Positions 6,744 to 46,023 of a stretch of 64,000 bases of DNA are shown here, one piece after another; positions within the stretch are counted from its first letter, which is position 1; the number at the start of each line of letters is the position of its first letter. The stretch is from a virus: IMG/VR virus record IMGVR_UViG_3300017782_000001; one strand, written 5' to 3'. A program made the translations under genes and the position numbers. A model generated the notes under the pieces. That model searched no databases. It was given only the letters and a program-made list of their open reading frames with translations, and was not told the origin of the DNA.

Positions 6744-7154
6744 ATGAAAACAATATTCACCAACGGCTGCTTTGACATCTTACACGCTGGCCACGTAAAT
6801 TATCTTCAACAATCTAGAGCTTTAGGCGATAGGTTAATTGTCGGGCTAAATTCTGATAAAAGCCTGTACAATCTAAAGAATAGATGTTATAATATAGATA
6901 TAGATCGAAAACAAGTATTAGAAGCTTTATCTTGTGTAGATGAAGTTATTATTTTCGATGAAGAAACTCCTTGGAATTTAATTAAGGAAGTAAAGCCCGA
7001 TATCATTACTAAAGGTGGTGATTATAACCTAGATCAGGTAGTCGGCAAAGAATTAGCAGAAGTACGTATTATTCCAGCCTTACGCGATAGATCTACTTCT
7101 CGACTTATACGAAGGATTAAAGATGGCAACTCAGTTATCTGGCCAAGTGAATAA
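6744..7154 (+). CDS. hldC: Heptose-1-phosphate nucleotidyltransferase (HldC / RfaE domain II)
   Basis: TNGCFDILHAGH (HxGH motif), LIVGLNSD, PDIITKGGDY, C-terminal RSTS; start moved to ATG 6744. Confidence 0.9.
   Translation: MKTIFTNGCFDILHAGHVNYLQQSRALGDRLIVGLNSDKSLYNLKNRCYNIDIDRKQVLEALSCVDEVIIFDEETPWNLIKEVKPDIITKGGDYNLDQVVGKELAEVRIIPALRDRSTSRLIRRIKDGNSVIWPSE
6865..6893 (+). promoter_or_regulatory. Intragenic sigma70-like promoter (TGTACA-N17-TATAAT)
   Basis: Exact match to the phage promoter pattern seen at 15358 and 61643, with TG extension, inside the hldC CDS. Confidence 0.6.
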
Positions 7155-7494
7155 AGGGTGGGGAAGTGAACTCATTTTTGCCACTAATGATATGTACTGC
7201 GGTAAACTATTAAGGTTTAACCAGCAAAAAAGCTTTTCAATGCATTTACATAAAGAGAAGCATGAAACTTGGCATATACTTGAAGGGCAATTTAGGCTAG
7301 AAACAATCAATACTATTGATGCTTCTAGAAACATTGAGATTTTAGAAACCGGAGATACAAAAGTTATTCCGCCTATGTTACCACATAAACTAACATGCAT
7401 TTCTAACGTTGGTATTATTATTGAAGTCTCGACACCAGATTCAGTCGAGGATAACTATAGAGTTGAACCTGGAGATAGTCAAATTGAGAAGTAA
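7123..7494 (+). CDS. Cupin-domain protein (sugar isomerase-like)
   Basis: KGWGSELIF..NDMYCGK, SMHLHKEKHETW, IPP..PH, EVST: cupin metal-binding motifs. Confidence 0.85.
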   Translation: MATQLSGQVNKGWGSELIFATNDMYCGKLLRFNQQKSFSMHLHKEKHETWHILEGQFRLETINTIDASRNIEILETGDTKVIPPMLPHKLTCISNVGIIIEVSTPDSVEDNYRVEPGDSQIEK

Positions 7495-8389
7495 AAGAAT
7501 ATGGGGTATGGCAGGTCATGGTCATGATGCTAGCATTACTGTTTGGTATGACACAGACGTAATGGTTGAGCACTATACTTCTGAGCCTTATCATAAATAT
7601 GAAGATGTAGAGTCGTTAAAGAAAAAGTTTGGTGCACCTGATTTAGTTGTATGGTACGAAAATCCTTATCTAAAATCTATTAGACAATGGTGGGCTGGCC
7701 AAAAAAATCCTTTTCAAAGAAATAATGTTAGAAAAATTTTAGACGATTTAGGACTTGATCGTACTCGCTGGACATGGGTTGGCCACCACGAAGCTCACGC
7801 ATCTTGGGCACTTAAATCACCTTTTGATAAAGCCTTGGTTTTTGTAATTGATTCTATTGGCGAATGGGATTGTACTTCAGTATGGAAGTATGACGGCGAT
7901 CTTACAAAAAAAGCTTCAATTAGATATCCAGATAGCATAGGTTTATTTTATAGCTCAATGGTTAAAGAAGCAAAGCTTGTGCCACAAAAAGATGAAGCTC
8001 ATTTTGAATCACTAGCAGTAACACCAAGCCCGGCAATTAAAAATAAAATTAAAAGTGATCTTGTCCTTAGTGCTGGTTGGCAACCAAGATTCAGTAGAAA
8101 TATGCATAGAGGATTAGGTGGGATATATGAAAATTTTAGAGCAGAAGACTTAGCATCTGCAACTCAAGAAATATTTGAAGAACTTATAGTTAATATGATT
8201 GAGCATTGGGTCAAAAAAACTGGTATTAAAAATATCATTTTAACAGGAGGATGCGCATATAATAAAAAAATTAGAAGTAAAATACCGTATACGCTATGGG
8301 TTCCACCACGGCCACATGATGGAGGCTCAGCTTATAGTTGTGTGCTAGCTCATAACCGGACAGCACTTATAGATTCATTGAATACGTAG
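7484..8389 (+). CDS. Carbamoyltransferase N-terminal (Kae1-like) domain only, NodU/CmcH family
   Basis: HDAS, HHEAHA, VIDSIGEW, SIGLFYS, LTGGCAYN, PHDGGSA; ends before the YrdC-like C-domain; TTG start at 7484 follows GGAG. Confidence 0.85.
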   Translation: MRSKRIWGMAGHGHDASITVWYDTDVMVEHYTSEPYHKYEDVESLKKKFGAPDLVVWYENPYLKSIRQWWAGQKNPFQRNNVRKILDDLGLDRTRWTWVGHHEAHASWALKSPFDKALVFVIDSIGEWDCTSVWKYDGDLTKKASIRYPDSIGLFYSSMVKEAKLVPQKDEAHFESLAVTPSPAIKNKIKSDLVLSAGWQPRFSRNMHRGLGGIYENFRAEDLASATQEIFEELIVNMIEHWVKKTGIKNIILTGGCAYNKKIRSKIPYTLWVPPRPHDGGSAYSCVLAHNRTALIDSLNT

Positions 8390-9056
8390 GTTTAGTTTTT
8401 TGCCAAGCTTCTGTAATAGGCCAAAGACAATCATCAATATATTGTTCAACCACTTCTTTTTCAATACCTAATGATTCCATTACGCGTGGGGTATGTGGAT
8501 TTTGTCTTTGATTATAAACGTACCATGATTGGTTTGATGAGAAATCTTTAGAAGTTCTTTTTCCAATATGAGACAAGTGCATTTTTAGATTTTTAATTGC
8601 TAAGCTTAATATTTGATCAACTTCAGCGTCTGTATTTACATTACCTGCAGCAATCATATGTGGACTAAAAATATTTTTTGCCCAGTCTGGAAGTTCTCTT
8701 TTCTTTGATGGAATAAACTCCTTTACATTCTCTCCAAACTGTGTTATAATAGTACTATTATGGTCCATAGGAGAAAAGTCATGAAAAGCTCCAGTAACTT
8801 TCTTAGGACCTGATATAATATCGAACCCGTAAATAGGAGAAGGATCATTAAAATGCGGATAAACTACTAAGTGTAACATCCATAGTTTTCGTGTTTCTGT
8901 AACATCAATAATGTCTAAGTCAGCTCTTCTAAACTTTTCACATGGACCATACGATAAAGCAGGCCAAGGGAATTTATGAGTATGCTTTAGATCAGTGGTA
9001 TCTTCTAATATTTCTTGAAGATCATTGCTAGCTGATATTAACTTCTGAAACATCAT
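8367..9056 (-). CDS. pcyX: Ferredoxin-dependent bilin reductase, PcyX/PcyA type
   Basis: FRRAxxD, WMLH, PIYGFDIISG, GAFHDFSP, RELPDWA..IFS, NQRQNPHTPRVMESLG; directly downstream of a heme oxygenase. Confidence 0.85.
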   Translation of the reverse strand: MMFQKLISASNDLQEILEDTTDLKHTHKFPWPALSYGPCEKFRRADLDIIDVTETRKLWMLHLVVYPHFNDPSPIYGFDIISGPKKVTGAFHDFSPMDHNSTIITQFGENVKEFIPSKKRELPDWAKNIFSPHMIAAGNVNTDAEVDQILSLAIKNLKMHLSHIGKRTSKDFSSNQSWYVYNQRQNPHTPRVMESLGIEKEVVEQYIDDCLWPITEAWQKTKPTYSMNL

Positions 9057-9615: not shown

Positions 9616-9625
9616 ATATAACTCC

Positions 9626-10507
9626 ATGATCCATGTTATTGGCGACATTATAATAGATGAGTACCTATTAGGTTCATCTACCAGATTATCACCTGAAGCA
9701 CCTATACCAGTTGTAGATCTAAAACGAAAGCGCTACTCTTTAGGTGGTGCTGGTAATGTATTTATGAACGTAAAATCTGCCACAGAAGACGTAAGTCTAT
9801 ATGGCTATATTGATGACGCTCATAGTTATATATTAAAGAAAATAAAGCCAAAGGGTAAAATTAGCGAATGTGATTTAATGCCGCTTAAAACAAGAATTGT
9901 AGCAAATGATCATATGTTAGTTAGAGTTGACACTGAAGAATATATTGAAGAAACAATTATCGAAGATTCTTTTTCAATTAAAAACGAATATGATATTGTA
10001 GTTTTATCAGATTATAATAAAGGGACTGTAAAAAACCCGCAGTCAATAATCACTAAAAGTAAAAGGTGTATTGTAGATCCAAAGGTATCATTAGATTATT
10101 ATAAAAATGCGTATGTGTTAAAACCAAACAAAAAAGAATTTGAAGACTATATTGGTGAAAGTAACCTATCGCCTAAACATCTGCTGGTGCACGCGCGGCG
10201 CGTGCGGGATGAGCTTAATGTAGATAATTTTATTGTTACTCTTGGATCAGAAGGTGTACTTTTAGTAGGAGATCAAATAGAACACTATCCTGCAACATCA
10301 ACAGAAGTTTCAGATGTCACTGGAGCAGGGGATACATTTACTGCAACATTAGCGATATGTTTATGGATGAACTTACCAGTGTATCTGGCAGTACGAATAA
10401 GTAATACTATGGCTGGAGAAGCTGTGAAAAGACATGGTACGTATTTGATTGATTATAACAAATTAGCAGAAGAGATAGAAAATGAAAAAATTATTAGTAA
10501 CAGGTGA
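9626..10507 (+). CDS. hldA: Heptose-7-phosphate kinase (HldA / RfaE domain I, PfkB family)
   Basis: VIGDIIIDEY..G...RLSPEAPIPVV, GGAGNV, LSDYNKG, KPNKKE, DVTGAGDT. Confidence 0.93.
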   Translation: MIHVIGDIIIDEYLLGSSTRLSPEAPIPVVDLKRKRYSLGGAGNVFMNVKSATEDVSLYGYIDDAHSYILKKIKPKGKISECDLMPLKTRIVANDHMLVRVDTEEYIEETIIEDSFSIKNEYDIVVLSDYNKGTVKNPQSIITKSKRCIVDPKVSLDYYKNAYVLKPNKKEFEDYIGESNLSPKHLLVHARRVRDELNVDNFIVTLGSEGVLLVGDQIEHYPATSTEVSDVTGAGDTFTATLAICLWMNLPVYLAVRISNTMAGEAVKRHGTYLIDYNKLAEEIENEKIISNR

Positions 10508-11312
10508 TAAAGGTTTTATCGGAAAGCGTGTTGCCGAACAATTTTACGGCGCTGGTTGGAACGTTGATGGATGCGATTATAATGAGGCAGTACCAAATGT
10601 TTCAGGGTACGATTTAGTAATTCATTTAGGAGCTATATCATCTACTAATAACAGAGATGCTGAAGCAATATACAAACAAAATTATCAGTATAGTATAGAT
10701 CTTATGAATAGTTGCCTTATAGACAATGTACATTTTCAGTATGCTTCATCTGCAAGCGTCTATGGTACAAACACAAACTTTGAAGAAGATTCTCCAAAAA
10801 ATCCTCAAAGTGGCTATGCATGGTCAAAGTTTTATTTAGATCAGTACGCTGAAAAGGTTATGAGCTTTCCAACTTCTAGTACTATACAAGGATTTAGATA
10901 TTTTAATGTGTATGGTGCTGGAGAAGAACATAAATTACAACCTTCGCCTATTACGTTTTTTACTAATCAGGCAAAAGAAACAGGGATAATTAAAGTATTT
11001 GAAGATAGCGCAAATTTTAAGAGAGATTTTATAAACGTATTTGATATTTGTAGTTTACACTTAGCGTTAGCAGAAAAGCCTGAGTCTGGAATTTTTAATG
11101 TTGGAACAGGATCTACTGTAAGCTTTCAAGAAGTTGCAATACAAGTTGCTGAAAAATATGGTGCTGAAGTTGTAGAAGTTCCTATGCCAAATGATATTAA
11201 AGATCAATACCAAAAATATACGTGCGCAGATTTAACTAAATTAAATAAAATAATTCCACATAAAGATTGGTGTGAGTGGACAGTAGCGGAATATATTGAC
11301 AATGCCTTATAA
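10482..11312 (+). CDS. hldD: ADP-L-glycero-D-manno-heptose-6-epimerase
   Basis: TGDKGFIG, HLGAISST, YASSASVYG, YAWSK, RYFNVYG.GE.HK, RDFI, YQKYTCAD. Confidence 0.88.
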   Translation: MKKLLVTGDKGFIGKRVAEQFYGAGWNVDGCDYNEAVPNVSGYDLVIHLGAISSTNNRDAEAIYKQNYQYSIDLMNSCLIDNVHFQYASSASVYGTNTNFEEDSPKNPQSGYAWSKFYLDQYAEKVMSFPTSSTIQGFRYFNVYGAGEEHKLQPSPITFFTNQAKETGIIKVFEDSANFKRDFINVFDICSLHLALAEKPESGIFNVGTGSTVSFQEVAIQVAEKYGAEVVEVPMPNDIKDQYQKYTCADLTKLNKIIPHKDWCEWTVAEYIDNAL

Positions 11313-11940
11313 TATGTGGGGTGAAACCCCTGTAGACCAAGAACAAGCCACCAACGAAGACTTTAATTTAACTGACAAAGAACGCTTGGCAAAATACACT
11401 AAACCAATAGTTTGTTTTGATAGAGAAGGCGTATTGTTTGAATACAAAGAAGCTATAACTTCACGAGAAGAAGCCATTCCTATTAAAAGCTCGTTTGAAG
11501 CAATTGGTCTTATCCGAAGAAAAGGATATAAAATTGCTATGATTCATGATCAACCTGGAGTTTCTAAAAATTTAGTTACACACGAGCAAGTTGAAGATAT
11601 AAATGCATACGTAATTGAACTGCTTGGCGAATCAAATTGCCCTAGCATTGATTGTATTTTATACAATGAAAGTAATGAAAAGTTTGATTATTATGGTAAA
11701 CCAAATAATGGTATGTTTTTAAGAATGCGTGACGAATTTGGTGTGCCATTCAAAGATGGATATTATATTGGACACGAATATCTTGATATTAAAATGGCAA
11801 AGAAATCTCAGCTGAAACCTGTGGCATTCCGCTTTTCTCCAGAAGATTTGAAAAAGTTGAACAGCTTTGCAATGAAAGACATAAAACGAAAAACAAAATT
11901 GGTCGATGATCTAATGGATTTTGCACATTCATTACCTTAA
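11302..11940 (+). CDS. GmhB-like HAD phosphatase with altered catalytic motifs
   Basis: FDREGVL (canonical DRDG), HDQPGV (TNQSG), KPNNGMF, YIGHEYLD (IGDxxxD); adjacent to hldD. Confidence 0.75.
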   Translation: MPYNMWGETPVDQEQATNEDFNLTDKERLAKYTKPIVCFDREGVLFEYKEAITSREEAIPIKSSFEAIGLIRRKGYKIAMIHDQPGVSKNLVTHEQVEDINAYVIELLGESNCPSIDCILYNESNEKFDYYGKPNNGMFLRMRDEFGVPFKDGYYIGHEYLDIKMAKKSQLKPVAFRFSPEDLKKLNSFAMKDIKRKTKLVDDLMDFAHSLP

Positions 11941-11989: not shown

Positions 11990-12565
11990 TTATACAAAAT
12001 CAGGTCCGCGGACCCAACCTACAAGAGCTCTTCTTGTTCCTTTAGTAACAGGAGAAACTCTATGTAGAAGATATGAAGGAAATAACATTATATCCCATTT
12101 ATTCATAGGAATAGAAACTGGTTCTGGTCCTGTGAATAATTCAAAATCTCCTCCTTCAAAATCATCATTTAGTAAAATAGAAAAGGATAACTTTCTACCT
12201 TGTCCTTCACCATCTTTTAGCATATTATCAATATGCCAAGTGTAATGTCCATTTTCTGGGTATTCACTATATTGTAAGCTTTCAATATAATTCAAAGCAA
12301 AAGAATATTTTCCATTATTACTCATTTCAATTTTATGAGCTATATCATAGTAAATGTGTCGAGTATCTTCAGTTGCTTCAATCCATAATATATCAGATTT
12401 TCTTATGGAGCTATCGTTTCCATCTTTTTCAGGATTATTAATTTCAGCAGGCTGTGTATCATTAGCTTCAATATAGTTAACTAACTGGTTTATCCCATCT
12501 TTTGAAAAGCAATTAGGAATAATGGTTTCCCAAGAAGTTGGATTAGGATCTCTAAGAGCTAGCAT
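11990..12565 (-). CDS. 2OG-Fe(II) oxygenase (PKHD / prolyl-4-hydroxylase-like)
   Basis: WHID, RKLSFSILL, FEGGDF, FPSYLLHRVSPVTKGTRRALVGW. Confidence 0.92.
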   Translation of the reverse strand: MLALRDPNPTSWETIIPNCFSKDGINQLVNYIEANDTQPAEINNPEKDGNDSSIRKSDILWIEATEDTRHIYYDIAHKIEMSNNGKYSFALNYIESLQYSEYPENGHYTWHIDNMLKDGEGQGRKLSFSILLNDDFEGGDFELFTGPEPVSIPMNKWDIMLFPSYLLHRVSPVTKGTRRALVGWVRGPDFV

Positions 12566-14370
12566 TAATTAGGCACCTTTACAATTTTACCAATTTCTGG
12601 AAAATAACAATATTCAATATCAGAATTTTCAAGAGTCCTAATAGCATCATTTATAGTTTCAACTAAAGGCTCACCACCAAGATTAAATGAAGTGTTGAAT
12701 ACAATAGGCATACCTGTTTTACGCTTAAATTCTTTAATTAGCGCGTGATAAGATGGATTTTCTTTTTCACTTACTGTTTGAATTCTACACGATCCATCGG
12801 TATGAATAATGCTTGGAATTTTTGCTTCAACACCTTCTTTACAATTTACGGCGTACATCATATGCGGAGTTTTTTCCATGCCCCTTAAATCAAACCAATC
12901 ATGTACATCTTCTTCAAGAATTGTTCCTGCAAACGGCCTGAAATACTCACGATTTTTTACTAGATTAACGTAGTCTTTGCCATCTTCAAATGAAGGATCA
13001 AACAAAATAGATCTATTACCTAAAGCTCTAGGTCCATTTTCAGATTTCCCTTGAAAGATTGTCACAATATTCTTTTGTGTTAACAAATCTACTACACCTT
13101 GATTATCACAATCATAAATTGTATCACCTTCTGAAAGAAGACTTTTTATATCGTTTTCATCATAATCATATTCAGGTCCTAAGTATAACGTACTTCCATA
13201 ATCTCTAATTTCTTCATCATTAGAAATTAAGTAGTGATGATAAAGTGCTGCACCAATCGCAGTACCTGCATCATTAGAAACTGGCTCTACATATAATTCA
13301 ATTTCTTCGTCTTTAAGTTGTTCAAGGAACCAATAGTTAGCAACACAATTCAAAGCATATCCGCCTGAAATAACAACATTTCTCTTACCTGTCATTTCAA
13401 CAGCTTTTCTAATAAGCTTCAAAAGTTCTTCTTGTGTTTCTATTTGACATTTGTAAGCAACATCTCTAGCAATATTTGTTTTAGTCATATCGCCTTGACA
13501 GCTTTTCATTTCTTCTTCTGTAGGCTGGAATTGACTATAGAACATAGCATTCAAAAACGCTGCATTAGGCGTATTTGGCGTAAAAATATTTCTATTAAAT
13601 GAGCCTGGGATAGGAGAATCTGGATCAAAGAACGGAGGTAGATTTTTATTTGGTAAACCATAAGGAAATAAACCCATTGTTTTACCAGCTTCAATTGGCT
13701 GCCAACCAAGATATTGTGTAATAGCTTCGTAAACTTTAGTAATTCCGCCTCTATCATCAACAGCTAGTTCAATTTCATTTCCAGGTTCACCAATAAACTC
13801 TGCATCTCTTTTTCCAATTTGAGGAAAAATTGGATTTCTACAACCAACATGTTTATACTTTGTTTGGAAAACTGCAGGATAAGCACATTCAATAATAGAT
13901 TCATATTCCCATACAGTTTCTTCGCCTGCAATTGGATCTTTATAATTTAGCATAGATCCAGCACCATCTGCAATAACAGCAACAGCGTCTTCAAATGGAG
14001 ATCTATAAAACGCTGCAGCAGCATGCATTTTGTGGTGATTATCGGAAACTTCAATTACTTGAGGATGTTCACCACCGTATTCATCTCTAGCATCAATTAA
14101 ATGCATTTTACGAGCAAGACCAGTATATACATCATCTCCACTAAAATCTACTTTAGCTCCCATATACAAAGGTTGAGTATGAGAAATGATCAGATAATCA
14201 ATTTTATCGGTATATTCTTTAATTTTCATCATAGCAGCATAAGGGCCACCATCATATTTTTTACGAGAAAGTCTTTCTTCTTCAATAGCAAAAACAACTT
14301 CACCGTTTTTCAATAGACACACTGCAGCGTTATGACCTCTTGAAATACCAGCAATCCAAAAATCTTTCAT
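12565..14370 (-). CDS. Carbamoyltransferase, full-length NodU/CmcH/TobZ family
   Basis: IEEERLSRKK, HHKMHA, DGAGS, AGKTMGL, GGYALNC, GPRALGNRSIL, REYFRPFA, NTSFNLGGEP. Confidence 0.95.
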   Translation of the reverse strand: MKDFWIAGISRGHNAAVCLLKNGEVVFAIEEERLSRKKYDGGPYAAMMKIKEYTDKIDYLIISHTQPLYMGAKVDFSGDDVYTGLARKMHLIDARDEYGGEHPQVIEVSDNHHKMHAAAAFYRSPFEDAVAVIADGAGSMLNYKDPIAGEETVWEYESIIECAYPAVFQTKYKHVGCRNPIFPQIGKRDAEFIGEPGNEIELAVDDRGGITKVYEAITQYLGWQPIEAGKTMGLFPYGLPNKNLPPFFDPDSPIPGSFNRNIFTPNTPNAAFLNAMFYSQFQPTEEEMKSCQGDMTKTNIARDVAYKCQIETQEELLKLIRKAVEMTGKRNVVISGGYALNCVANYWFLEQLKDEEIELYVEPVSNDAGTAIGAALYHHYLISNDEEIRDYGSTLYLGPEYDYDENDIKSLLSEGDTIYDCDNQGVVDLLTQKNIVTIFQGKSENGPRALGNRSILFDPSFEDGKDYVNLVKNREYFRPFAGTILEEDVHDWFDLRGMEKTPHMMYAVNCKEGVEAKIPSIIHTDGSCRIQTVSEKENPSYHALIKEFKRKTGMPIVFNTSFNLGGEPLVETINDAIRTLENSDIEYCYFPEIGKIVKVPN

Positions 14371-15323
14371 TATGTTCTCCCAGCAGCTGCTGCTACTTTA
14401 GCATCTACTTCTTTACAAATTTCTCTAACTGCGGCATCATCTAGATACATAAGTCTGTCGTGTGCACGCGCATATTCATCTTCCATAGTAATACGGATAG
14501 GGTCATATCTACGCTTTCCTTCGCCTAAATCAAGAACCTGAAAGGTTTTTGAATCTGGATAAGAAATATTCTCAGGATATGTTGAACCTACAACTACAAC
14601 AGAAGGAACATCTAATGCATAAGCCATGTGCTGTCCTACACTATCACAACCGATAAAACAATCTGCCGCATTAATAATTCCAGCCCAATGTCTTAAAGGA
14701 GCACCTTCAGGTTGAGCGACTGGTTGATTACATCCTAGCTTTTGATAATCTGTAGGAAACTCAGACATTAAAATAATAGCGTATTTTTCTTGAAGTTTTT
14801 TAATAACTTTTACAACATCATCCGGTCTAAATGATCTTCCTCCAGGATCAGCAATCGTATCACCAAAGGGTTGTGTAGATCTACCGAAAGGTTGAAAAAC
14901 AATTAATCTTTGTTTAGAAGTTTTTTCTTTTACTTCACGAACAACCGCAGCTCCTTCTAAACCTTCAGGTGTATTAAGCACAAGAGTAGGTTTATTCATA
15001 GGCCTTACGCCTTTAGAGCTCATCTCAATATCAAAAGCTTGAGTGATATTTGCTTTTTGGTTATAATACTCCCAAATACGATATGGCTCAAGACTTACAC
15101 AATCTCTAGATTTGATCTTTTCTTCAAAAAGACCTTTATGCCAATTATCAAATACTCGTTTATGGAGAGTTGGGTGGCCATGGAACATGTCAGTTCCGCC
15201 TTCACAGATAATGATAAAATCATCATCTGGATTTTCTTTTTCATACATTTCGAAAGCTGGAATAGAGCTAATAACTCTACCGGCGCCTCCGTTGACGAAG
15301 AACGCCTTTGATCTATTTTTCAC
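14370..15323 (-). CDS. GT9-family (ADP-heptose heptosyltransferase-like) glycosyltransferase
   Basis: GGAGRVISSIPA, IVFQPFG, LRHWAGIINAADCFIGCDSVGQHMAYALDVPSVVVVGST (GT9 DSGxxHxAxA-like motif); GTG start at 15323 after GAGGT. Confidence 0.8.
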   Translation of the reverse strand: MKNRSKAFFVNGGAGRVISSIPAFEMYEKENPDDDFIIICEGGTDMFHGHPTLHKRVFDNWHKGLFEEKIKSRDCVSLEPYRIWEYYNQKANITQAFDIEMSSKGVRPMNKPTLVLNTPEGLEGAAVVREVKEKTSKQRLIVFQPFGRSTQPFGDTIADPGGRSFRPDDVVKVIKKLQEKYAIILMSEFPTDYQKLGCNQPVAQPEGAPLRHWAGIINAADCFIGCDSVGQHMAYALDVPSVVVVGSTYPENISYPDSKTFQVLDLGEGKRRYDPIRITMEDEYARAHDRLMYLDDAAVREICKEVDAKVAAAAGRT

Positions 15324-15346
15324 TTTTTGCACCTCACGTGAACATT

Positions 15347-17114: not shown

Positions 17115-17140
17115 TCTTTACACCTTTACAATACTAAAGC

Positions 17141-37439: not shown

Positions 37440-40400
37440 TATGCGCTCAGTGCTATCACTCTTAAATCAGTAAATTGAGGAACCGAAGCATTGTTAGAAC
37501 TGTTCATAACAATCTTAAGCATAAACTTCGAGAATGGTGTTGATAGTCCGTCTTCTCCACCCACTAAATATTCATAATCTCTAAAGATTGAAGGATTTTC
37601 ATCTGTTGGTTGATCAACTTCTTTTATAACTTCTGTCCAGGGAGTATCCGAAAATAGTATATCTTCACCAATTGCTTTATAGTAAACTCTAAAGTTAGAG
37701 GCTGAAGGCCGGTTAGCTGCTAGCAAAATTTTAAGGCCAATGGCATCATTTTCTAGAGTTACTGGTCTAGTAATATGCTTAGCAAGAGATGTTCCGTTTT
37801 GAGAGTTAGTTTCATCAACATACGTTATAGGATTATTTCTATCAGCAGAATCACCATATTGGCTTTGGAAATCAATTCTATTATGAATTGTCCACATAGA
37901 AGCTCGTTGCATATCAATCACTGGAGAAACATCAGGACTTTGTGATATCATATTTAGTTTTAGTGTTATAGCTTTTTCAAGTCCTAGGTTATTAACTCTT
38001 TGTTCTTTAGAAGGAATAATTTGAGGAACGTTAAAGTAATTGTTTTCTCTTCCTGCCAAAGTTAAATATGTAGTTGCCTTTGTGTATTTTGTTTCATTAC
38101 CAGCAATAGACCGTCCTGTAGTAAATCTACCGGTAGGTGTAATCCTAGTAGAAGTAGGCACCAGAGTATCGATAGCTGGAACAACTTGTTCAAATAGTTG
38201 CTGTTTTGACATTGCTACTAAGTTGTTACCAATAATTTCACTATTGGTTGCATCTGAATCAAAGTCTACTTTGAAGAAATCATTATCTGCACTATCGATT
38301 GCGCGGATACCCATAATAGAAGAACCTAAGATTCCTGCGTATCTAGCAGATGAGTCAAGTCCGGTGATCATAACCTGATCACCATCAGTAAACCCATGAT
38401 CAGGGTGGAATACTGTAGCTGCTGGTGACCCACTAGTTACATCAATAGGATCAGTTGTTAAAAGGTTTATTGATGGATCTGCATTTTCCAATATTGCTTC
38501 AGCTGTTGAATGTCTAAATCTAGCTGTGTGCAATTCAAACGCCATATCAATTGTTTGATCTGGTTCCCAAATAAATGAGTTTTGAGATTTGAAAAATGAA
38601 CCTAGTGTTGGTTGCTGTGTAATTCTTCTTTCAGTAGATCCAAGAATAAATTCACCTGTTTTACCAATGTAAACGTTATATTCAATTGTTTCAGCTTTTA
38701 GAACAAATGCATATTCAGTATACGAATTCAGGTAAATAGGCTCATCAAATTCAAAGTAGGTGATAGCAGTACCATCAGCAGATATATTCACATCAGCCGG
38801 ATCCTTAAATACTACACCTCCCGGCAATACTTGGTATGCCGCAGGAGCACCTTCAACAGCAGGCCTTAGTTCTAGTTGAACCGGAACAATTGGATCTTTT
38901 GAAGCAAATCTTACACCAACCTTTGTACAGAAAATACCATCTGGCCTTGGAACATAGAATGTTTGAGCGATAGGATCACCACCGCCGCCACCATCACCAC
39001 CTTCGCGGCCACCGTCATCAGGTGGATCTGGAATTCTTCTTACAGATCTTGCAGTACGTGTATCAGTTCTAATATTTAAGCTTCTTGTTGATCTAATAGT
39101 TTGTTGTCTAGTTTCAAGAATACCGTTTGCCTCATATGAAGCAAATGCTCTTGAAGTAGAATCTGCAGGCTTTGGAACTGTAATGTCCAAAAGCATAAAC
39201 TCTCTTCTACCTGTTCTAAATTTTTGAACGCCATTAGGAATGAAGAAAGATCCTTCAATTTTACCAGTCTCATCTGTAATAAGAGTAGACTTACCTTCAG
39301 GATGCTCAGTTGCATTATTGTGTCTAGACCCAAATTGAGTAGGATCATCTGAAGTTCTTTGGAATGTTTCTTCTCTTACCCATTGAGAAATATCTTTTTC
39401 ATCAAAGTAAGGGAATAGTCTTGTTTCCGGTTTTAAGCCTTCAGCCTTAAAATAAATTTTCCTAGATCTCATAAACGGAATAACTGCAACATCCAAAACT
39501 CTATCGCCAATAACTTCACGAATAGTTTCACCTTGAACAATTCTAGTAACTGAAGTCGTAGTTGTAGTGGTTATAGTACGACCGCTTTGACTAGATCCTG
39601 ACGAAACTGAACGACCTAGTTGTCTACCAGCAAGATTAGAAAGATCTGTTCCACCCCACTGCCATTCCCAGTTATTCCAAAGATTTTGCTGTGCAGGATT
39701 AAGTCTGAATCCTCCATCTACAATTCTTGGTGGTACTCTTTTTACTTCACGCCAATCGTCTGATTGTGGTGAAAGAAGAACTCGACCTGTATGAGTAATA
39801 ACTGCAAACGGGTTAACGTTAATTGTACCAGAATATAAAGGCTGATCAATAAACTTTAGATCATCATATTTAATATAAACGTTATCGCCTTTTTTAATTG
39901 TATTGGTTGACTTATCTGAGTCATAAACAAAACCGATTTGATCTTCATTAAACGAAGGTCTAACTATTCCTTCTCTTGGATCAATCGCTGCAGCGTATTC
40001 TGGACTATTAACTGCTGATGCTAGTTGATCAGAAAAGTTATCAACTAAAAATCCAGCTTTAGTTCTATCAGCACCTGTTGAATCAAAAACACTAAATGTT
40101 CTTAGATTTGTTTCTAAAGCATTAAGCGTAGCTATTTCTTCTAATTGATCGATACGAGTTTCAAGTTTACCAATGTCTGCCATTGTAAATACTTTTGTCT
40201 CAATAAGATCAGTGTCAGTGTCTGAATCATTTAGAGTAAAAGGATTTAGCTTAAGCTTATAAAGCTCTAATGAATTTTCTGGTGTTTCTGGAAATCTTGG
40301 TGAAAGATCTGATTGACCAGGAATGATTTCAATTAATCCAGTTTCTTTGATAATGAGTTTATCATATCTTGGCATATAAGTTTCTTGATCAAATCTAATC

Positions 40401-42607
40401 AAAGAGTTAGGCTTTGGTAGCTCGTTAATACGAGCAGTACCACCAGCAAAGTCAAGCGCATCGTCTTTCAATCGAGGACGGAAGTCTAATACATCTCTTA
40501 AATTAACTACAGTTCCATTTGACAATTCGTGGTTTGGAATGTCAGCATAATCTACTTGTCCAGTATATGAGTTAACTGCAAAGAAATCGCCAGATGCACC
40601 ATGTGTAAAATATGAAAATGAGCAGAAAACGTTACCAGCAGGTTCCGCCGCACCTTGCTTAAGAATTAGTCTAGCTGGCGCATAAAAATTGTCTCTTTGT
40701 CCATTGTCAACAATAAATCTACTTGAAATATCTGTGCCATCAGATTCACCATCAGCAATAAGCACTACCTTAAACAAATCTGGTTTAGCAAGATCTAGTA
40801 CGTTATTTGAATCCAATGTAGTTTTAATAAAGGTTCCATTGGTTGCTAAACCCTTTGGTCCAGTTGTAGGAGGAGAATTTAGAGTTTTAGATCTAACAGT
40901 ACCTTGAGATTTATCAACTTTAGTTAATAACTCAAAGTTTGTTGTTGTTGGTCCGCCTGAAATATTAATAGTTGCTGTGCCAGTACCAGTGATAGTCACA
41001 TCATTATTAGTAAGCATTTTACCACTTGAATCAATAGTAAAAATCCACTCAGATGGAGAAGCGAAAGTTTCACCGTTTGCTGTTAACGTAAGTGTTTCTG
41101 ATCCAGAAAAGTCAAACTGTCCAGTAAAGTATCTTTGTACTTCAAGACTAATATCTGTAATTTGCTTAGGTCGACTATTTGGAAGAGGGAATAGAAGATT
41201 ATTATTAATAGCTCCTTTAAGTTCAGTTTCACCTCGTGTTTGCCTAACGTTAACATAGTCTGAAGTTGAGCCACCAATTGATTTGACATCACGAAATGAT
41301 TTACCGCTATTCATTGAAATATCAAAAAGATAGTACTTATAATCTGCACCATCTTCTTCAATATATCTTGCTCTTGCAGTACCAATTGTTGCGCCTAAGT
41401 GATTAGCAGAATCTCTTAAATTTCTAACTTGATAGGCGTTTAGATTAGGAAGCCTCTTAAACATCACCTCTAGTCTTGGATCGTTTGTTGAGTCAAGTTC
41501 AACAAAGTTACCAAAGTTTGCAGCAACAACCTGGTTATTAAGATCAGTAGTTTCTTGTGCTTTATTAATAGTAATTGTTTTAGGAATCATGCTTTCAGCG
41601 CGATAGCCATTAACATAAGCCACACCAGCAGAAACATCTACATCAAGTTTAGTGTTATCAGAATCATTCTCGTCAAATTTAACTCTAAACTGCTTAGCAC
41701 TAAAGTTACCATTTGTTTCATATGCTCTTTGTGAAACATAGTCTGCAATTTTTGCATATTGATTTGTTCCATTTGCAAATTCAGAAACGGAACCATTAAT
41801 TACATTAGCATAAAAAACAAAATTTTCATCAGAATCAACATTGGCTTTGTCAATTAACTCTAGTCTAATTCTATATCGATCAGCACCTGCTGCTGCCTTA
41901 TTAGGAATTGCTCCTTGATTATCATATAAAGCTTCATTGTCTGATGCTTTTACAATATCTTGAATTACCTTGAATCCAACAGTCGCTGTTACAGTATTGC
42001 TATATTTTGAAAGAATGATTGATTGGTCTTCGAAGAAAACGAAGTGGCCTTGTACAAAGAATGATCCGGTATTAACAGAAGCTCGGGTACCCATACCTGA
42101 TGACGGATTAGCAACAGTGTTTGTTGTTTGAACTGTAAGAGTAAATCCTCCTCCAGAAATTTCCTCACCAGGAGTAAATCTAATAGGACTAGTAGATGAA
42201 GTTCCTGTTGAAGTTTTAGTGTATCTAAGATATAGTGTTGCAGGATCGACTGAACCCGCGGCAACAGCTTCAATGACTACAGCTTTAACTCCTGAAGTTG
42301 CTCCTGTAAATTCTATGTTATTATAATCGTTAGGGTCTGTTCTAAAAATATTTACAGAAGTATCTAGCTTAATAAACTCGTATTCTTTGTTAATAGTAAT
42401 TCCACCTGGATTTACTGCAGCACCTTCTTTGAAAATGTTTTGAGCAAACGTTTCAATTTCTCTTTGTATAATAGTCTGCATTTGCGTAAGCTCTCTAGCT
42501 TGCAATGCTCGACCCGAGTTAAAGAGAATACGATGATAGTTATCGCTATCTCTGAAATCGTCTCTATATGTATCCGAAAATATTTTTTTCGTAAAATCAA
42601 CAGCCAT
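37439..42607 (-). CDS. Large baseplate-associated protein (DUF4815 / VrlC-like, 1722 aa)
   Basis: YRDDF...YHRILF..GRALQARELTQMQT, GADR, FTMADIGKLE.RI, GFLVDNF, NVNPFAV, FMRSR, DPIAQTF, GSFFKSQN. Confidence 0.88.
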   Translation of the reverse strand: MAVDFTKKIFSDTYRDDFRDSDNYHRILFNSGRALQARELTQMQTIIQREIETFAQNIFKEGAAVNPGGITINKEYEFIKLDTSVNIFRTDPNDYNNIEFTGATSGVKAVVIEAVAAGSVDPATLYLRYTKTSTGTSSTSPIRFTPGEEISGGGFTLTVQTTNTVANPSSGMGTRASVNTGSFFVQGHFVFFEDQSIILSKYSNTVTATVGFKVIQDIVKASDNEALYDNQGAIPNKAAAGADRYRIRLELIDKANVDSDENFVFYANVINGSVSEFANGTNQYAKIADYVSQRAYETNGNFSAKQFRVKFDENDSDNTKLDVDVSAGVAYVNGYRAESMIPKTITINKAQETTDLNNQVVAANFGNFVELDSTNDPRLEVMFKRLPNLNAYQVRNLRDSANHLGATIGTARARYIEEDGADYKYYLFDISMNSGKSFRDVKSIGGSTSDYVNVRQTRGETELKGAINNNLLFPLPNSRPKQITDISLEVQRYFTGQFDFSGSETLTLTANGETFASPSEWIFTIDSSGKMLTNNDVTITGTGTATINISGGPTTTNFELLTKVDKSQGTVRSKTLNSPPTTGPKGLATNGTFIKTTLDSNNVLDLAKPDLFKVVLIADGESDGTDISSRFIVDNGQRDNFYAPARLILKQGAAEPAGNVFCSFSYFTHGASGDFFAVNSYTGQVDYADIPNHELSNGTVVNLRDVLDFRPRLKDDALDFAGGTARINELPKPNSLIRFDQETYMPRYDKLIIKETGLIEIIPGQSDLSPRFPETPENSLELYKLKLNPFTLNDSDTDTDLIETKVFTMADIGKLETRIDQLEEIATLNALETNLRTFSVFDSTGADRTKAGFLVDNFSDQLASAVNSPEYAAAIDPREGIVRPSFNEDQIGFVYDSDKSTNTIKKGDNVYIKYDDLKFIDQPLYSGTINVNPFAVITHTGRVLLSPQSDDWREVKRVPPRIVDGGFRLNPAQQNLWNNWEWQWGGTDLSNLAGRQLGRSVSSGSSQSGRTITTTTTTSVTRIVQGETIREVIGDRVLDVAVIPFMRSRKIYFKAEGLKPETRLFPYFDEKDISQWVREETFQRTSDDPTQFGSRHNNATEHPEGKSTLITDETGKIEGSFFIPNGVQKFRTGRREFMLLDITVPKPADSTSRAFASYEANGILETRQQTIRSTRSLNIRTDTRTARSVRRIPDPPDDGGREGGDGGGGGDPIAQTFYVPRPDGIFCTKVGVRFASKDPIVPVQLELRPAVEGAPAAYQVLPGGVVFKDPADVNISADGTAITYFEFDEPIYLNSYTEYAFVLKAETIEYNVYIGKTGEFILGSTERRITQQPTLGSFFKSQNSFIWEPDQTIDMAFELHTARFRHSTAEAILENADPSINLLTTDPIDVTSGSPAATVFHPDHGFTDGDQVMITGLDSSARYAGILGSSIMGIRAIDSADNDFFKVDFDSDATNSEIIGNNLVAMSKQQLFEQVVPAIDTLVPTSTRITPTGRFTTGRSIAGNETKYTKATTYLTLAGRENNYFNVPQIIPSKEQRVNNLGLEKAITLKLNMISQSPDVSPVIDMQRASMWTIHNRIDFQSQYGDSADRNNPITYVDETNSQNGTSLAKHITRPVTLENDAIGLKILLAANRPSASNFRVYYKAIGEDILFSDTPWTEVIKEVDQPTDENPSIFRDYEYLVGGEDGLSTPFSKFMLKIVMNSSNNASVPQFTDLRVIALSA

Positions 42608-42622: not shown

Positions 42623-44023
42623 TTAGAGTTGAATCACAACTTTAATGTCCTCTGTTTGGTCATTAGACCTTTCAATTGGTGATCTATTATCAATATATAG
42701 TAACTCCCCTGAAAAGGGATTTACGTCTGGGAATCTATATGCAAATGTATCAGAATCAGTGGCAGCGTTTTCAACAATGCCATCTCCATTACCATTTTGT
42801 TCAGTGAGGACTTCTCCTTCTTGGAAAATACCAAAGCCGGTTACTTCTGATTGATGGTAATAAATTCTACTTGAATCTACAAAATCAACTAAACCTTTAG
42901 CTGAGGATGAGGCTCCAAGGATTGTTCTATCAACAGTAAATGGTGTTGATACAGTTGAAAGTTTTAGATAATTCAACGTGTTTCCAACATCTGCAACGTA
43001 TAGTGGTCCATCTCCACCAGCACTATCTGCTTCGACATTTTTAAGCAATAGTGTTTGTCTAAAGTCGTTACCAACTTTTAGAATATCATTTTCATCACCA
43101 GCAATTCTTGAGTTAAACATTAATGAAAATGATCTTAAGTCTTCTCTTGGATCTGCACCAACGCCAGAGTCTGGTCCAAAGACTGCTCTAGCAGTAGCAC
43201 CTGTACCACCGCCACCATTAATTGAAATATCAGCTCTAGTGTATCCGGATCCAAATGCATGTCCTGTTTTAGAACCTGCTCCGGAATCATTCATTTCAAT
43301 TTTAGTTACTATTCCATTTGAAACTGTAGCCGTCGCAGCAGCCTGCTTGCCAGAGTTATCTCCTGTAATTTGTATTGTAGGAGTTCCTGTGTATCCACTG
43401 CCAGCATTTATTAACTGTATAGAAATAATTTCTCCTTGAGTTGCTGCTTCTTGCACAAGCCTTTGGTTAACCTGCAAAGCAGATAATCCTGGAGTTCCTG
43501 CTGAATCATTAACTTTAGTTACAGGAATGAAATTTGCTGAAGTAAATTTAGTACCATCAAGCGCACCGATAGTGTATAAGTATTTCCAAATGTAACCATC
43601 TGCAGTCGAAATTGGTCTAGAATTTGTACCGGTTGGTTTAACCGTTGATGTCACTGATGATCCAGCCGCGTTTAGACCTGGTTGAATACACATATACACA
43701 GAGTTTTCATCTGTAAGAACATAATATGGATTGGTTGGATATGCAGCATACGCATCATCAAATGCGCTGTAAATAGTACCAGACGACCAGTTATGTCGAG
43801 GAACAACAAAGGAAACTGTTTCAGCAGTCTTTACTGCTTGCATTCCTAAGCGTGCATTTCTTTCATCTCTTTGAGACTTAATTGGTGTAGGTGCAGCATC
43901 GTTGGAATCCCAAGGTTCAGATCTTCCAATCCCAACATAGTAGTTGTTACTAGAGTCTAACACATCATCAAATAAATGATTAATGAATTGTCTTTTAAGT
44001 CTATCTGTAATAATCGCAGCCAT
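42623..44023 (-). CDS. gp8: Baseplate wedge subunit gp8
   Basis: AAIITD, YVGIGR, VVPR.NW.SG, YMC, DGYIWKYLYTI, C-terminal SGELLYIDNR.PI.R..DQTEDIKVVIQL. Confidence 0.9.
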   Translation of the reverse strand: MAAIITDRLKRQFINHLFDDVLDSSNNYYVGIGRSEPWDSNDAAPTPIKSQRDERNARLGMQAVKTAETVSFVVPRHNWSSGTIYSAFDDAYAAYPTNPYYVLTDENSVYMCIQPGLNAAGSSVTSTVKPTGTNSRPISTADGYIWKYLYTIGALDGTKFTSANFIPVTKVNDSAGTPGLSALQVNQRLVQEAATQGEIISIQLINAGSGYTGTPTIQITGDNSGKQAAATATVSNGIVTKIEMNDSGAGSKTGHAFGSGYTRADISINGGGGTGATARAVFGPDSGVGADPREDLRSFSLMFNSRIAGDENDILKVGNDFRQTLLLKNVEADSAGGDGPLYVADVGNTLNYLKLSTVSTPFTVDRTILGASSSAKGLVDFVDSSRIYYHQSEVTGFGIFQEGEVLTEQNGNGDGIVENAATDSDTFAYRFPDVNPFSGELLYIDNRSPIERSNDQTEDIKVVIQL

Positions 44024-44031: not shown

Positions 44032-45018
44032 CTATACTACCGTAGCACCGTATTGGCCAATAATCTGCCAATTGGTATTATCCCAAATTAAAATGCAACC
44101 ATCGGTTTGGTCCAATACAATATCAGCGCCTGGACCGAATGAGGTAGGTGTGATAGTTGCTATACCAGCACCTTTGTTTGTAAAAATCTTTTGTTCTCCA
44201 ATAGTGGTTCCATCTGCTAGACCAATTGCTGAAGCAGTTCCTATATTAATAATTACATAAGAAGTTGCACTTGGTGCAGTACCAGCAGAAGTCATTTCAG
44301 TAACAGTTGTAGCAATCTTTTGTACTTCAACTGATCCTAAGCCTTTAGGTGAAAGCTTTAAGTTAATATCTGTATCGCTTCCTGACGCCGCTAGTTCAGG
44401 TTTTCCTGCAGTTGCAGCATTAGTTAGTGTGACTTCATTTACTGCTGATGCTGTAGCCGTTATCTTTAATAGCTCAGCACCGTTAACATCATTTATTTTT
44501 CCAGTAATAGCTGGGTTGTTAATTGTTGCAGAATCTAAAGTTTTATTTTCTAAAGTTTGTGTAGACTTCAAAAATGTAAATGTATCACTATCAGTAAGTG
44601 AAGGGATGTTAACATTATGATCTGATGTTAGTGAACCTGCTTTAAGAATATATTGATGAGAGGAATCTAAATCATGAATTTGAGGTGCACCAAGAACTGG
44701 AGAAATAAGAGTTTTATTAATTATTGTTTGAGTTGCAGAATCAGTAATAATTTCACCATCTGCATTAGGTAACCTAATTGTTCTATCAGAATCCGGATCA
44801 ACTGCTTTTAGTGTAGTTTCAAAGTTATCATCAGTAGTGCCTTCAAACTGAATACCGTTTGCTGTAACAGATAACTCACCTGACAATAAATCAGAATCTC
44901 CACCAAGCTTTTGGTAAAGTTCTACAAAGTTTGAGTTAATTTTAGTGGCAGCTGCTCGGAGTGTATCTCCTGTACCGTCATTTGCGGTACTGCCAGTGCC
45001 TAAGTTTTGCCGTGCCAT
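44032..45018 (-). CDS. Baseplate wedge / tail-fibre connector (gp9/gp10-type N-terminus)
   Basis: GTGSTANDGTGDTLRAAATKINSNFVELY; TQTL.NKTL repeats. Confidence 0.8.
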   Translation of the reverse strand: MARQNLGTGSTANDGTGDTLRAAATKINSNFVELYQKLGGDSDLLSGELSVTANGIQFEGTTDDNFETTLKAVDPDSDRTIRLPNADGEIITDSATQTIINKTLISPVLGAPQIHDLDSSHQYILKAGSLTSDHNVNIPSLTDSDTFTFLKSTQTLENKTLDSATINNPAITGKINDVNGAELLKITATASAVNEVTLTNAATAGKPELAASGSDTDINLKLSPKGLGSVEVQKIATTVTEMTSAGTAPSATSYVIINIGTASAIGLADGTTIGEQKIFTNKGAGIATITPTSFGPGADIVLDQTDGCILIWDNTNWQIIGQYGATVV

Positions 45019-45046
45019 TCAATCACCTATTGAAAATTCTTATTGT

Positions 45047-45054
45047 TATTTATA
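45047..45054 (-). promoter_or_regulatory. Late promoter TATAAATA
   Basis: Exact motif upstream of 45018. Confidence 0.8.
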
Positions 45055-46023
45055 TCAACTATCATACAGTTCGAAGCGATCTAGATCCATTGTTTCAATC
45101 GCATTGGATATTTTAAGTAATCCAGGAGTTCTTCCTGTATCTTCATCTAATGTTGGAGAGTTAACGTCCAAAATACCGTCAGTTCCAGGTGCAAAGTTTC
45201 CATAAGAATTTATAAGCTCTTGAATAGACATATTTGAATATCTATTAATCTGTACAAACCTTGCTCTAGTCACATCGCTATCTCCGTCAATACCATCTTC
45301 AAATTCACCGACTACTTCATGGAATGCTTGTGGAGCATCCAATGTTGCAAACGCTTCGCTTGTTCTTGCCAATGAGGCAGAATCAATAAGCACAACTGTT
45401 GGTTGTGTTCCATTAACATCAAATATGGATTGCGCCTGTATTTCAAGTGAAACTTCACCTCCAAGAAAAAATCCTGCAGGGTGTACAAACCTTCTATATA
45501 ATTCTTTCCATCTAATAATTGGAACAGAAGATTTAATTAACACAGAAAAAATTTGATATAATCCTGCGTTTTGTATATATTTAAGAGATTCAGCACCAAT
45601 TAAAGAATCATCTATTCTAAACATTTGTTCTTTTGGAAATTGAATTTCTACTGTTTCATTAAAAAATGCTCTAAAAAAACCTTCAGCAGAATATAAGCTA
45701 CCTTTAACTCTAAAAAAGTTAGCAAAGTTTCTTAATGCTTCTCGCGAATCTGCAAAGTATGAAGCTGATGCGCCTTGAGCAATTTCTGCAAATATTTGAT
45801 CTAACTGTTTAGCAGAAGAAGATTCGATATCTCTAATCGCGTATAAGTCTTTAAGAGAATCTGTAAGCTCATCTGAATCCATAAATGAGTAATAAGCATT
45901 CATGAATTTTATAAGATTAGGATAATCTCTTTGAAAATATTCTGGCAATACTTGTTCAACCACGTCTGTATGGAAAACAAGATTACGTCTATTAAAAAAT
46001 ACTTCTTCTGTTTGTGTTGTCAT
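45055..46023 (-). CDS. gp7: Baseplate wedge initiator gp7-like (compact form)
   Basis: LPEYF..DYP....F..AYY, F..KGS....FFR.FF, YQ.FS..IKS....W......VHPAGF; follows gp6. Confidence 0.75.
   Translation of the reverse strand: MTTQTEEVFFNRRNLVFHTDVVEQVLPEYFQRDYPNLIKFMNAYYSFMDSDELTDSLKDLYAIRDIESSSAKQLDQIFAEIAQGASASYFADSREALRNFANFFRVKGSLYSAEGFFRAFFNETVEIQFPKEQMFRIDDSLIGAESLKYIQNAGLYQIFSVLIKSSVPIIRWKELYRRFVHPAGFFLGGEVSLEIQAQSIFDVNGTQPTVVLIDSASLARTSEAFATLDAPQAFHEVVGEFEDGIDGDSDVTRARFVQINRYSNMSIQELINSYGNFAPGTDGILDVNSPTLDEDTGRTPGLLKISNAIETMDLDRFELYDS

Follow-up and report, generated by a model that had tools for sequence, protein, structure and literature searches.

An Asp-Ser excess in the peripheral tail proteins of one lineage of marine T4-like phages does not follow the adjoining heptose and glycosyltransferase islands

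In the present work we examine a dipeptide bias in a stretch of viral DNA of 64,000 nucleotides (IMG/VR record IMGVR_UViG_3300017782_000001, called the window below), which is the neck, fibre and baseplate part of the genome of an uncultured marine T4-like myovirus. The dipeptide Asp-Ser (DS) is two to four times more frequent than expected in the tail fibres and outer baseplate proteins encoded there. We will show that this excess is restricted to the tail periphery, that it is confined to one phage lineage, and that it tracks neither of the two islands of sugar-related enzyme genes embedded among the fibre genes. The reading that we tentatively prefer is that DS is recognized in trans by a lineage-specific factor, most plausibly an enzyme that modifies the serine.

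The z-scores given for single proteins are from shuffles, and O/E denotes the ratio of observed to expected. The strongest case is the 1054-aa tail fibre (27819..30983; minus strand, as for all proteins in this paragraph), with 42 DS against 10.9 expected (O/E 3.8, z 10.7), followed by the 1361-aa tail fibre with N-terminal CBM5/12 repeats (23108..27193; 33 against 11.7, z 6.4) and a 175-aa fibre-like protein (36692..37219; 9 against 2.2, z 5.1), whose family occurs only in DS-rich records. Lower z-scores are found for a 322-aa baseplate wedge subunit (45055..46023; 7 against 2.2, z 3.6), a baseplate-fibre connector with a gp9/10-like N-terminus (44032..45018; 6 against 2.0, z 3.1) and the gp8-like baseplate wedge protein (42623..44023; 8 against 3.2, z 2.9). 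The next gene upstream of the 1054-aa fibre (30999..31349) encodes a protein of 116 aa with 2 DS against 0.6, and it adjoins the fibre gene in 69 of 75 related loci. The first-pass annotation of the window had counted 42, 33, 9, 8, 7, 6 and 15 DS in seven proteins and considered all of them enriched; every count is reproduced exactly, and only the last excess is lost, the 15 DS of the 1722-aa VrlC-like/DUF4815 baseplate protein (37439..42607) comparing with 10.0 expected (z 1.7, not significant). Its statements that the inner proteins are DS-poor (0-2 each) and that the 1054-aa fibre is poor in DT (2 against about 9.4 expected) also hold.

No dipeptide is more over-represented than DS in either of the long fibres, and pooling of the ten richest window proteins gives 135 DS against 47.9 expected (O/E 2.8, p 7e-25). 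The same ten proteins have 55 SD for 47.9 expected (1.15), 28 DT for 46.9 (0.60) and 24 DD for 43.9 (0.55). The signal is specific for the orientation of the pair (SD about 1.0) and for serine (DT 0.4-0.6). Its context is roughly hydrophobic-D-S-small, with Y or F favoured just before the pair; the residue after it, at 120 sites, is A in 27 cases, D in 25, S in 17, G in 12, N in 11, T in 8 and I in 5, with A, D, S, G, N or T thus accounting for 100 of the 120.

Simpler origins of the excess were considered and rejected. A cause at the DNA level, by which GAY-TCN codon pairs would create GANTC, is contradicted by the presence of AGY codons, which make up 16% of the DS serine codons and 22% of serine codons overall; since the serine codons within DS mirror general serine usage, selection acts on the protein and not on a DNA motif. 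Neither can a local richness in D and S be responsible, as SD, DD, DG and NS are not enriched. An apparent avoidance of DS in the inner virion proteins (O/E 0.5-0.9 in the lineage against 0.8-1.05 in the outgroups) was not used as evidence, because the difference is small, the window values for DD and TD are low as well, and no depletion is seen in the remainder of the proteome.

Comparison of related sequences shows that the excess belongs to a single large lineage of uncultured marine phages, which are T4-like and resemble pelagimyophages. In all eight related records the peripheral tail proteins have a DS O/E of 2.0-3.3 (1.6-3.1 when the long fibres are left out), with SD at about 1.0 and DT at 0.28-0.67, and in Mosig, S-SSM7, S-CAM1 and S-ShM2 the same protein classes have a DS O/E of 0.7-1.0. 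Each of the best 120 homologues of the 1054-aa fibre has an O/E between 1.8 and 4.0, and a DS-rich fibre is found in 74 of the 75 IMG/VR loci. The gp8-like family behaves similarly, 120 homologues having on average 7.6 DS against 3.2 expected and an O/E above 1.5 in 96% of cases. These families are large, with at least 2,975 relatives of the fibre and at least 1,627 of the gp8-like protein in the protein collection.

Five complete relatives show no excess, namely the four phages just named and C48C1, and the orthologues of the 1361-aa fibre in Mosig, S-SSM7 and S-CAM1 are not DS-rich. In the complete 156-kb genome of C48C1 (OQ984149.1) the gp8-like protein has 3 DS for 2.7 expected and the wedge protein 1 for 2.0, and the genome-wide DS O/E is 0.88; a conserved protein of 535 aa, orthologous to window 1820-3427, is 71% identical to that of the window, as close as in the DS-rich records. 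Because orthologues with the same folds in sister phages are free of the excess, its cause must be lineage-specific.

At the positions of the window DS pairs, the DS-poor orthologues have varied dipeptides (DA, DD, DT, AD, ST, TG); in the 1361-aa fibre, whether in the CBM5/12 domains or in others, the variation extends to both residues. No D-x pair is enriched in the DS-poor homologues as a substitute for DS, from which it follows that DS is not required by the folds. The same result led us to reject AT pressure, converting D-A to D-S at a structural 'D-small' position, as an origin of the excess. In an alignment of 120 gp8-like homologues, 17 columns have DS in at least 10% of the sequences, against 5-13 columns for comparable dipeptides, and the alternative states in these columns change both residues (NA, GA, EE, IA, NN), which suggests that selection acts on DS as a two-residue unit. 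In the fibre family, D and S are 82% and 75% conserved inside DS, as compared to 63% and 50% for other D and S residues.

The first-pass annotation had taken the two enzyme islands as the source of a DS-directed modification. One encodes ADP-heptose synthesis enzymes, a GT9-like protein and a carbamoyltransferase, the other GT8-type glycosyltransferases and a radical SAM enzyme. Their distribution, however, does not follow that of the excess. S-SSM7 and S-CAM1 have the first cassette in the order seen in the window (fibre, Cys-rich paralogues, GT9-like, carbamoyltransferase, heptose genes, epimerase), with 50-55% identity for the GT9-like protein and 48-56% for the carbamoyltransferase, and their orthologous fibres have 8 DS for 6.8 expected and 3 for 6.3. 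Mosig carries orthologues of the glycosyltransferase GT8a (39% identity), of a 217-aa protein of the second island, of a carbamoyltransferase and of radical SAM genes, and none of its 168 open reading frames (ORFs) is DS-rich, the orthologue of the 1361-aa fibre having 4 DS against 7.9 expected. Conversely, two records that are 84-86% complete (G002 and G006) have the full DS trait and neither island, so that for both islands the excess occurs in relatives without the enzymes, an outcome that the first-pass annotation had itself listed as refuting its proposal. Among the seven other DS-rich records, the heptose/GT9-like/carbamoyltransferase cassette is found only in G008, the GT9-like gene in one and GT8a in three. 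A DS-rich fibre has GT8-island homologues within 10 kb in 42 of the 75 IMG/VR loci and the GT9-like gene in 3 of the 75, which fits shared synteny better than a functional link. Both islands are ordinary members of the host recognition cluster described below and probably not the readers of DS.

We propose instead that DS is a short linear motif that would be selected as a two-residue unit on the exposed periphery of the tail, where it would mark the long fibres, their 175-aa and 116-aa partners, the gp8-like and gp9/10-like proteins and the 322-aa wedge protein. It would be read in trans by a lineage-specific factor, most plausibly a serine-hydroxyl-modifying enzyme, with O-glycosylation as the leading candidate reaction, and the reading enzymes would be encoded outside the window. 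The statistics, the peripheral restriction and the lineage specificity of DS are observed, and so is the lack of tracking by either island; from them we infer the existence of a reader, its enzymatic nature and its possible identity. Of the first-pass proposal of a glycan tag made by the phage, the general notion of a sequon-type tag is retained, given that DS is specific in orientation, in its serine, in its peripheral location and in lineage, and behaves as a unit at variable sites; the mechanism by way of heptose, GT9 and GT-A enzymes is given up.

A candidate reader emerged from a comparison of gene families between eight DS-rich records and five DS-poor genomes. A pair of GT25 glycosyltransferases is present in six of the eight and, at the subfamily level, in none of the five, and it is the only recognizable enzyme family with such a distribution. 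In G008 the pair lies far from the fibres in a conserved cluster at 23.7-29.7 kb that encodes, in order, a GT8-like protein, a sulfotransferase, a methyltransferase, the two GT25 enzymes, another GT8-like protein, a 199-aa protein and an SprT-like protein. The 199-aa protein (atlas lead 0.91) is weakly MptE/Maf-like, with PF01973 matched at E 0.019 in three of five members and at 15 bits for a cut-off of 34.6, and sequence and profile searches of the PDB gave no significant match to it. By its distribution the GT25 pair is the best-tracking candidate, and we take it as a weak lead only. The more elaborate version of the proposal, in which DS would be the sequon of a previously undescribed cytoplasmic, serine-specific O-glycosylation that covers the fibres and outer baseplate throughout this abundant lineage, with the transferases in the lineage-specific GT25 cluster and the fibre-embedded islands supplying or tailoring the sugars or serving another acceptor, is in our estimate unlikely. 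In the DS-rich record G009 (L167:464-1061) the 199-aa gene is split into two overlapping ORFs, which may reflect a frameshift or an assembly error.

It is important to note that a number of observations weigh against a reader of DS. No modification of DS has been observed by anyone, and the exchange of Ser for Thr that many O-glycosylation systems would lead one to expect is not favoured at the DS sites. No enzyme tracks the trait cleanly: GT25 is absent from one DS-rich record (G011, 61% complete), and the DS-poor S-SSM7 has a GT25 of another subfamily. The DS-rich records constitute essentially one lineage, so that the GT25 correlation rests on very few independent events and is confounded by phylogeny. 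C48C1, the most useful contrast genome that we found, retains the 199-aa Maf-like gene without the GT25 pair and is DS-poor, and the 199-aa protein can therefore not be sufficient. To these points are added the structural features of the fibre repeats, which are best discussed together with the alternative that they favour.

In this alternative, DS is purely structural, an Asx-turn or N-cap micro-motif at the beginning of small building blocks of the fibre, possibly Ca2+-coordinating, that has been multiplied by repeat duplication and kept by purifying selection without being read. Many DS sites of the long fibre do fall in conserved repeats at predicted hairpin turns or helix starts. The repeat modules of the 1054-aa fibre include YDSxTGxFTF hairpins, TDSLAEGxNLYYT, ARxDSD, FDSDF and IDSAYxL; the AlphaFold2 (AF2) monomer model of this protein is poor (pLDDT 51, pTM 0.23), and only its local secondary structure was used, with caution. 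At this low confidence, YDSxTG is located at the end of a strand and the start of a four-residue hairpin turn leading into the next strand, IDSAY at helix starts, and ARxDSD and FDSDF in short helices. The homologous fibre repeats of S-ShM2 and CRP-207, both DS-poor, mostly retain the Asp, followed by A, D, T, G or N, and DS positions are in general conserved above average. Residues 622-690 of the fibre (window 28920-29120) have a weak, repeated resemblance to a calmodulin EF-hand pair (best E 0.014), and a DxGGDGS...YDS stretch hints at possible Ca2+ sites; sequence and profile searches of the PDB with the 1054-aa fibre gave no significant match. According to the model, then, part of the excess in this fibre is inherited with repeated modules in which the Asp has a structural role. 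As an account of the whole excess, however, structure is insufficient, because the same folds occur in Mosig, S-SSM7, S-CAM1, S-ShM2, CRP-207 and C48C1 without DS or a substitute D-x pair, and because unrelated, non-repetitive peripheral proteins share the bias, at variable columns and with two-residue swaps. The lack of SD enrichment also speaks against it, and we regard a purely structural origin as somewhat unlikely.

The remaining alternatives concern the role of the islands. In the mechanism of the first-pass annotation, ADP-heptose would be made by the phage and the GT9-like and GT-A enzymes would glycosylate the DS serines, so that the tail would be coated with sugars that include heptose and carry carbamoyl and methyl groups. 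Of the five ADP-heptose steps, four are indeed encoded (kinase, adenylyltransferase, GmhB-like phosphatase and epimerase), the genes for the GT9-like protein, the carbamoyltransferase and a 2-oxoglutarate (2OG) oxygenase end the fibre operon ahead of a strong terminator, the GT8 homologues often lie close to DS-rich fibres, and the structural neighbours of GT8a include A64R, the capsid-glycosylating enzyme of chlorovirus PBCV-1 (PDB 2P6W/2P72). The cassettes without the trait and the trait without the cassettes make this mechanism very unlikely, all the more so as the GT9 assignment itself is a sub-threshold match. It is also conceivable that islands and DS are unrelated, the islands modifying the host surface, in the published reading to block superinfection, and an external partner such as a receptor, a glycan or a cation selecting DS. 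The decoupled phyletic distributions and the confinement of the excess to the adsorption apparatus would agree with this, as does the literature, where the cluster enzymes are read as acting on the host O-chain (PMC7029224) and the heptose genes are listed as lipopolysaccharide (LPS) genes (PMC3037559). A physicochemical property of the surface should, however, not separate DS from SD or DT, and nothing links DS to any receptor; we consider an external partner improbable. Finally, it had been suggested that the 2OG oxygenases hydroxylate the Asp of DS, creating siderophore-like hydroxy-Asp-Ser iron sites. A prolyl 4-hydroxylase (P4H)-type 2OG oxygenase does close the fibre operon, and Mosig has annotated Asp/Arg-hydroxylase-domain genes beside its fibre genes. 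The window oxygenase has homologues in four DS-poor phages, however, and is missing from most DS-rich records, and Mosig, in spite of its Asp-hydroxylase-like genes, shows no DS excess, which leaves hydroxylation with hardly any probability.

The proposed reader can be compared with known modification systems. The sequon of the general protein O-glycosylation of Bacteroidota is D-(S/T)-(A/I/L/V/M/T), which resembles the window motif in having Asp first and a hydroxyl residue second, in the same orientation (DS O/E 2.8-3.8, SD about 1.0), and Ala is the commonest next residue after the window DS. Nevertheless, the fit suggested in the first-pass annotation is poor. The Bacteroidota sequon accepts both Ser and Thr, whereas DT is depleted in the window, and its third residue is methyl-bearing, whereas D, S, G and N together are commoner than methyl-bearing residues after the window DS. 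Furthermore, the Bacteroidota system acts in the periplasm on exported proteins, by means of an oligosaccharyltransferase, while virion proteins fold and assemble in the cytoplasm; no oligosaccharyltransferase turned up in Pfam scans of the window, although no dedicated search was made.

Closer in cellular location are the virion O-glycosylation of mycobacteriophages, which has reportedly been described, and the capsid glycosylation of PBCV-1, where viral glycosyltransferases encoded next to structural genes act in the cytoplasm on virion proteins, and the GT8 genes of the window likewise adjoin the fibres. In those two systems the glycosylation was demonstrated by mass spectrometry, on capsid or tail-tube targets, whereas for the window it is only proposed, and to our knowledge an Asp-Ser sequon has been described for neither. 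TibC and AAH, of the BAHT family, are cytoplasmic, ADP-heptose-dependent enzymes that modify serines of repetitive, beta-rich surface proteins. The window, too, has an ADP-heptose route and a GT9-like protein; the latter, however, has no detectable sequence relation to TibC, is found also where the fibres are not DS-rich, and is missing from the majority of the DS-rich records. The Maf proteins (motility accessory factor, PF01973) are flagellin O-glycosyltransferases, which modify Ser and Thr of a surface filament in the cytoplasm. The 199-aa protein of the relatives has a weak similarity to this family, but only a fraction of the size of Maf, and is encoded outside the window.

Should the DS serines prove to be modified, the adsorption apparatus would be decorated in a very abundant group of ocean phages. 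Phages of Gram-negative marine bacteria would thereby have their first virion modification defined by a sequon, with consequences for the recognition of hosts, for the stability of virions in seawater and for the interpretation of the many 'LPS genes' of marine myoviruses. Even if DS is structural, the heptose and GT8 cassettes cannot be tied to the fibres by way of the DS motif. The DS O/E of the peripheral tail proteins is in any case a simple sequence marker that splits close relatives, such as C48C1 and the DS-rich records, and such pairs are natural contrasts for finding the cause of the excess.

The islands themselves are not new to these phages. Zaragoza-Solas et al. (2020; PMC7029224) described a 'host recognition cluster', with cassettes of GT8s, rfaE and radical SAM genes, in pelagimyophages and cyanomyophages, and Sullivan et al. 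(2010; PMC3037559) classed the heptose genes T4-GC 304-308 among the 'LPS genes', which span T4-GC 302-308. The layout of the window agrees with that description and, by gene-order comparison, with Mosig, S-SSM7 and S-CAM1: a variable island, containing fibres, GT8, rfaE and radical SAM genes, lies between the neck genes (3758-6699) and the VrlC-like baseplate gene, with islands and fibres at 6729-37219. The content is also alike, fibres being interleaved with GT8s, rfaE-type heptose genes, carbamoyltransferases, 2OG oxygenases and radical SAM cassettes, and the order of the cassettes is that of S-SSM7, S-CAM1 and Mosig. A dipeptide bias is not reported in either paper, and the DS excess is an extra, lineage-restricted feature that does not follow these cassettes.

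For several of the island genes the nearest cultured relative is Pelagibacter phage Mosig EXVC030M. A heme oxygenase and a ferredoxin-dependent bilin reductase (8367-9648, minus strand) adjoin the neck genes. Both are found at the corresponding position in Mosig, a phage of SAR11, and their presence alone therefore does not point to a cyanobacterial host. Six tandem paralogues (phrog_4205, about 300-420 aa) with a higher G+C content of 0.41-0.43 occupy 16185-22673 on the minus strand, between a fibre gene and the GT9-like gene. Cys-rich homologues (25-36 Cys) hold the same position in S-SSM7 and S-CAM1, and the fibre, the Cys-rich paralogues, the GT9-like gene and the carbamoyltransferase therefore constitute a conserved unit.

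The heptose island begins on the plus strand with a heptose 1-phosphate adenylyltransferase-like protein (rfaE domain II; 6729..7154; PF01467, with TIGR02199 as best match at E 2e-45, below the equivalog cut-off). It is followed by a small, weakly WbuC-like cupin (7123..7494), whose cyanophage homologue in this cassette is the 'cysteine dioxygenase' gene, and by a short protein resembling the N-terminal part of a carbamoyltransferase (7409..8389). Further along the same strand are a heptose 7-phosphate kinase-like protein (rfaE domain I; 9626..10507; best match TIGR02198, E 1e-66, below the equivalog cut-off), an ADP-glyceromanno-heptose 6-epimerase-like protein (HldD; 10482..11312; TIGR02197, E 2e-62) and a GmhB-like HAD phosphatase (11296..11940; NF006506, E 5e-17). 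The fifth step of the pathway calls for a GmhA-type sedoheptulose 7-phosphate isomerase; no SIS-domain protein was found among the window ORFs scanned, and the window lacks a homologue of the small gene that is annotated as 'phosphoheptose isomerase' in S-SSM7 and S-CAM1. The missing reaction may be contributed by the host or by the cupin.

On the minus strand, the fibre operon ends with the GT9-like protein (phrog_8954; 14370..15380), a NodU/CmcH-type O-carbamoyltransferase (12565..14370) and, as its last gene, the P4H-type 2OG-Fe(II) oxygenase (11990..12565). A strong G+C-rich hairpin at 11944-11966, with 10 pairs (7 G-C) and T runs on both sides, lies between the convergent HAD and oxygenase genes and is, from its sequence, probably a bidirectional terminator that closes the operon. 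The heptosyltransferase similarity of the GT9-like protein is limited to a stretch of about 40 residues, both with PF01075 (E 7e-4, 19.4 bits for a cut-off of 22, over 43 residues) and with TIGR02201 (E 1.8e-5 over 40 residues, sub-threshold), and a profile of five homologues retrieved no GT9 or TibC chain from the PDB. The existence of the two islands described in the first-pass annotation is hence borne out, whereas its GT9 assignment is weak, the pathway has no GmhA-type isomerase in the window, and only two of its three GT-A enzymes are supported.

These two are encoded in the GT8 island, on the plus strand. GT8a (31994..32887) is a retaining GT-A glycosyltransferase with a DxD motif and a weak Pfam GT8 match (E 0.006), and GT8b (32850..33647) is a second GT8-like glycosyltransferase (PF01501, E 2.7e-5, at the cut-off). 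They are followed by a radical SAM enzyme with a SPASM domain (33631..34695) and a 217-aa protein (34613..35266) in which an NKLxLF...YFDLD motif is conserved and which may be a third small GT-A enzyme. When it was aligned to the GT8a profile with hhalign, the probability was 1.6%, although YFDLD lines up with the DxD motif, and its sole PDB match, a Skp1 galactosyltransferase, is not significant (E 0.36). For GT8a, GT8b and the 217-aa protein alike, sequence and profile searches of the PDB gave no significant match.

The predicted structure of GT8a (pLDDT 85.6, pTM 0.84) has a GT-A fold, and Y131, D133 and D135 are invariant in the family. Its structural neighbours, with Z from 11.7 to 13.8, are A64R, XXT1, LARGE1, UGGT, glycogenin and LgtC; the best of them is A64R (Z 13.8, root-mean-square deviation 3.3 A over 185 residues), statistically tied with XXT1 (13.2) and LARGE1 (12.9), and the modelled fold is uninformative on the acceptor. 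Translation most likely starts at the ATG at 31994 and not at the GTG at 31931, since this is where the alignment of the family starts and the model is disordered over its first 25 residues. The divergent gene at 31385..31990 (minus strand), which heads the fibre operon, encodes a putative methyltransferase-like protein of weak family assignment. It is only 3 nt away from GT8a, and each promoter must therefore lie inside the other gene.

A 236-aa ORF on the minus strand (35031-35741) overlaps the gene of the 217-aa protein by 236 nt. The C-terminal part of its product, acidic and of low complexity, contains five DS, and a homologue in Mosig (33% identity) has none.

Sigma-70-type promoter scans gave results at the chance level. 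The T4 late-promoter-like sequence TATAAATA has 14 exact matches in the window against 8.5 expected, which is marginally above chance. The match by the methyltransferase-like gene is 9 nt from the start codon and inside GT8a codons, and it was not used as evidence on timing. Twelve of the 14 matches are on the minus strand, mostly just upstream of minus-strand structural genes, and none precedes the plus-strand island genes; examples are found at 1809, 6736, 17141, 27798, 31382, 37277, 45047, 48328 and 56147.

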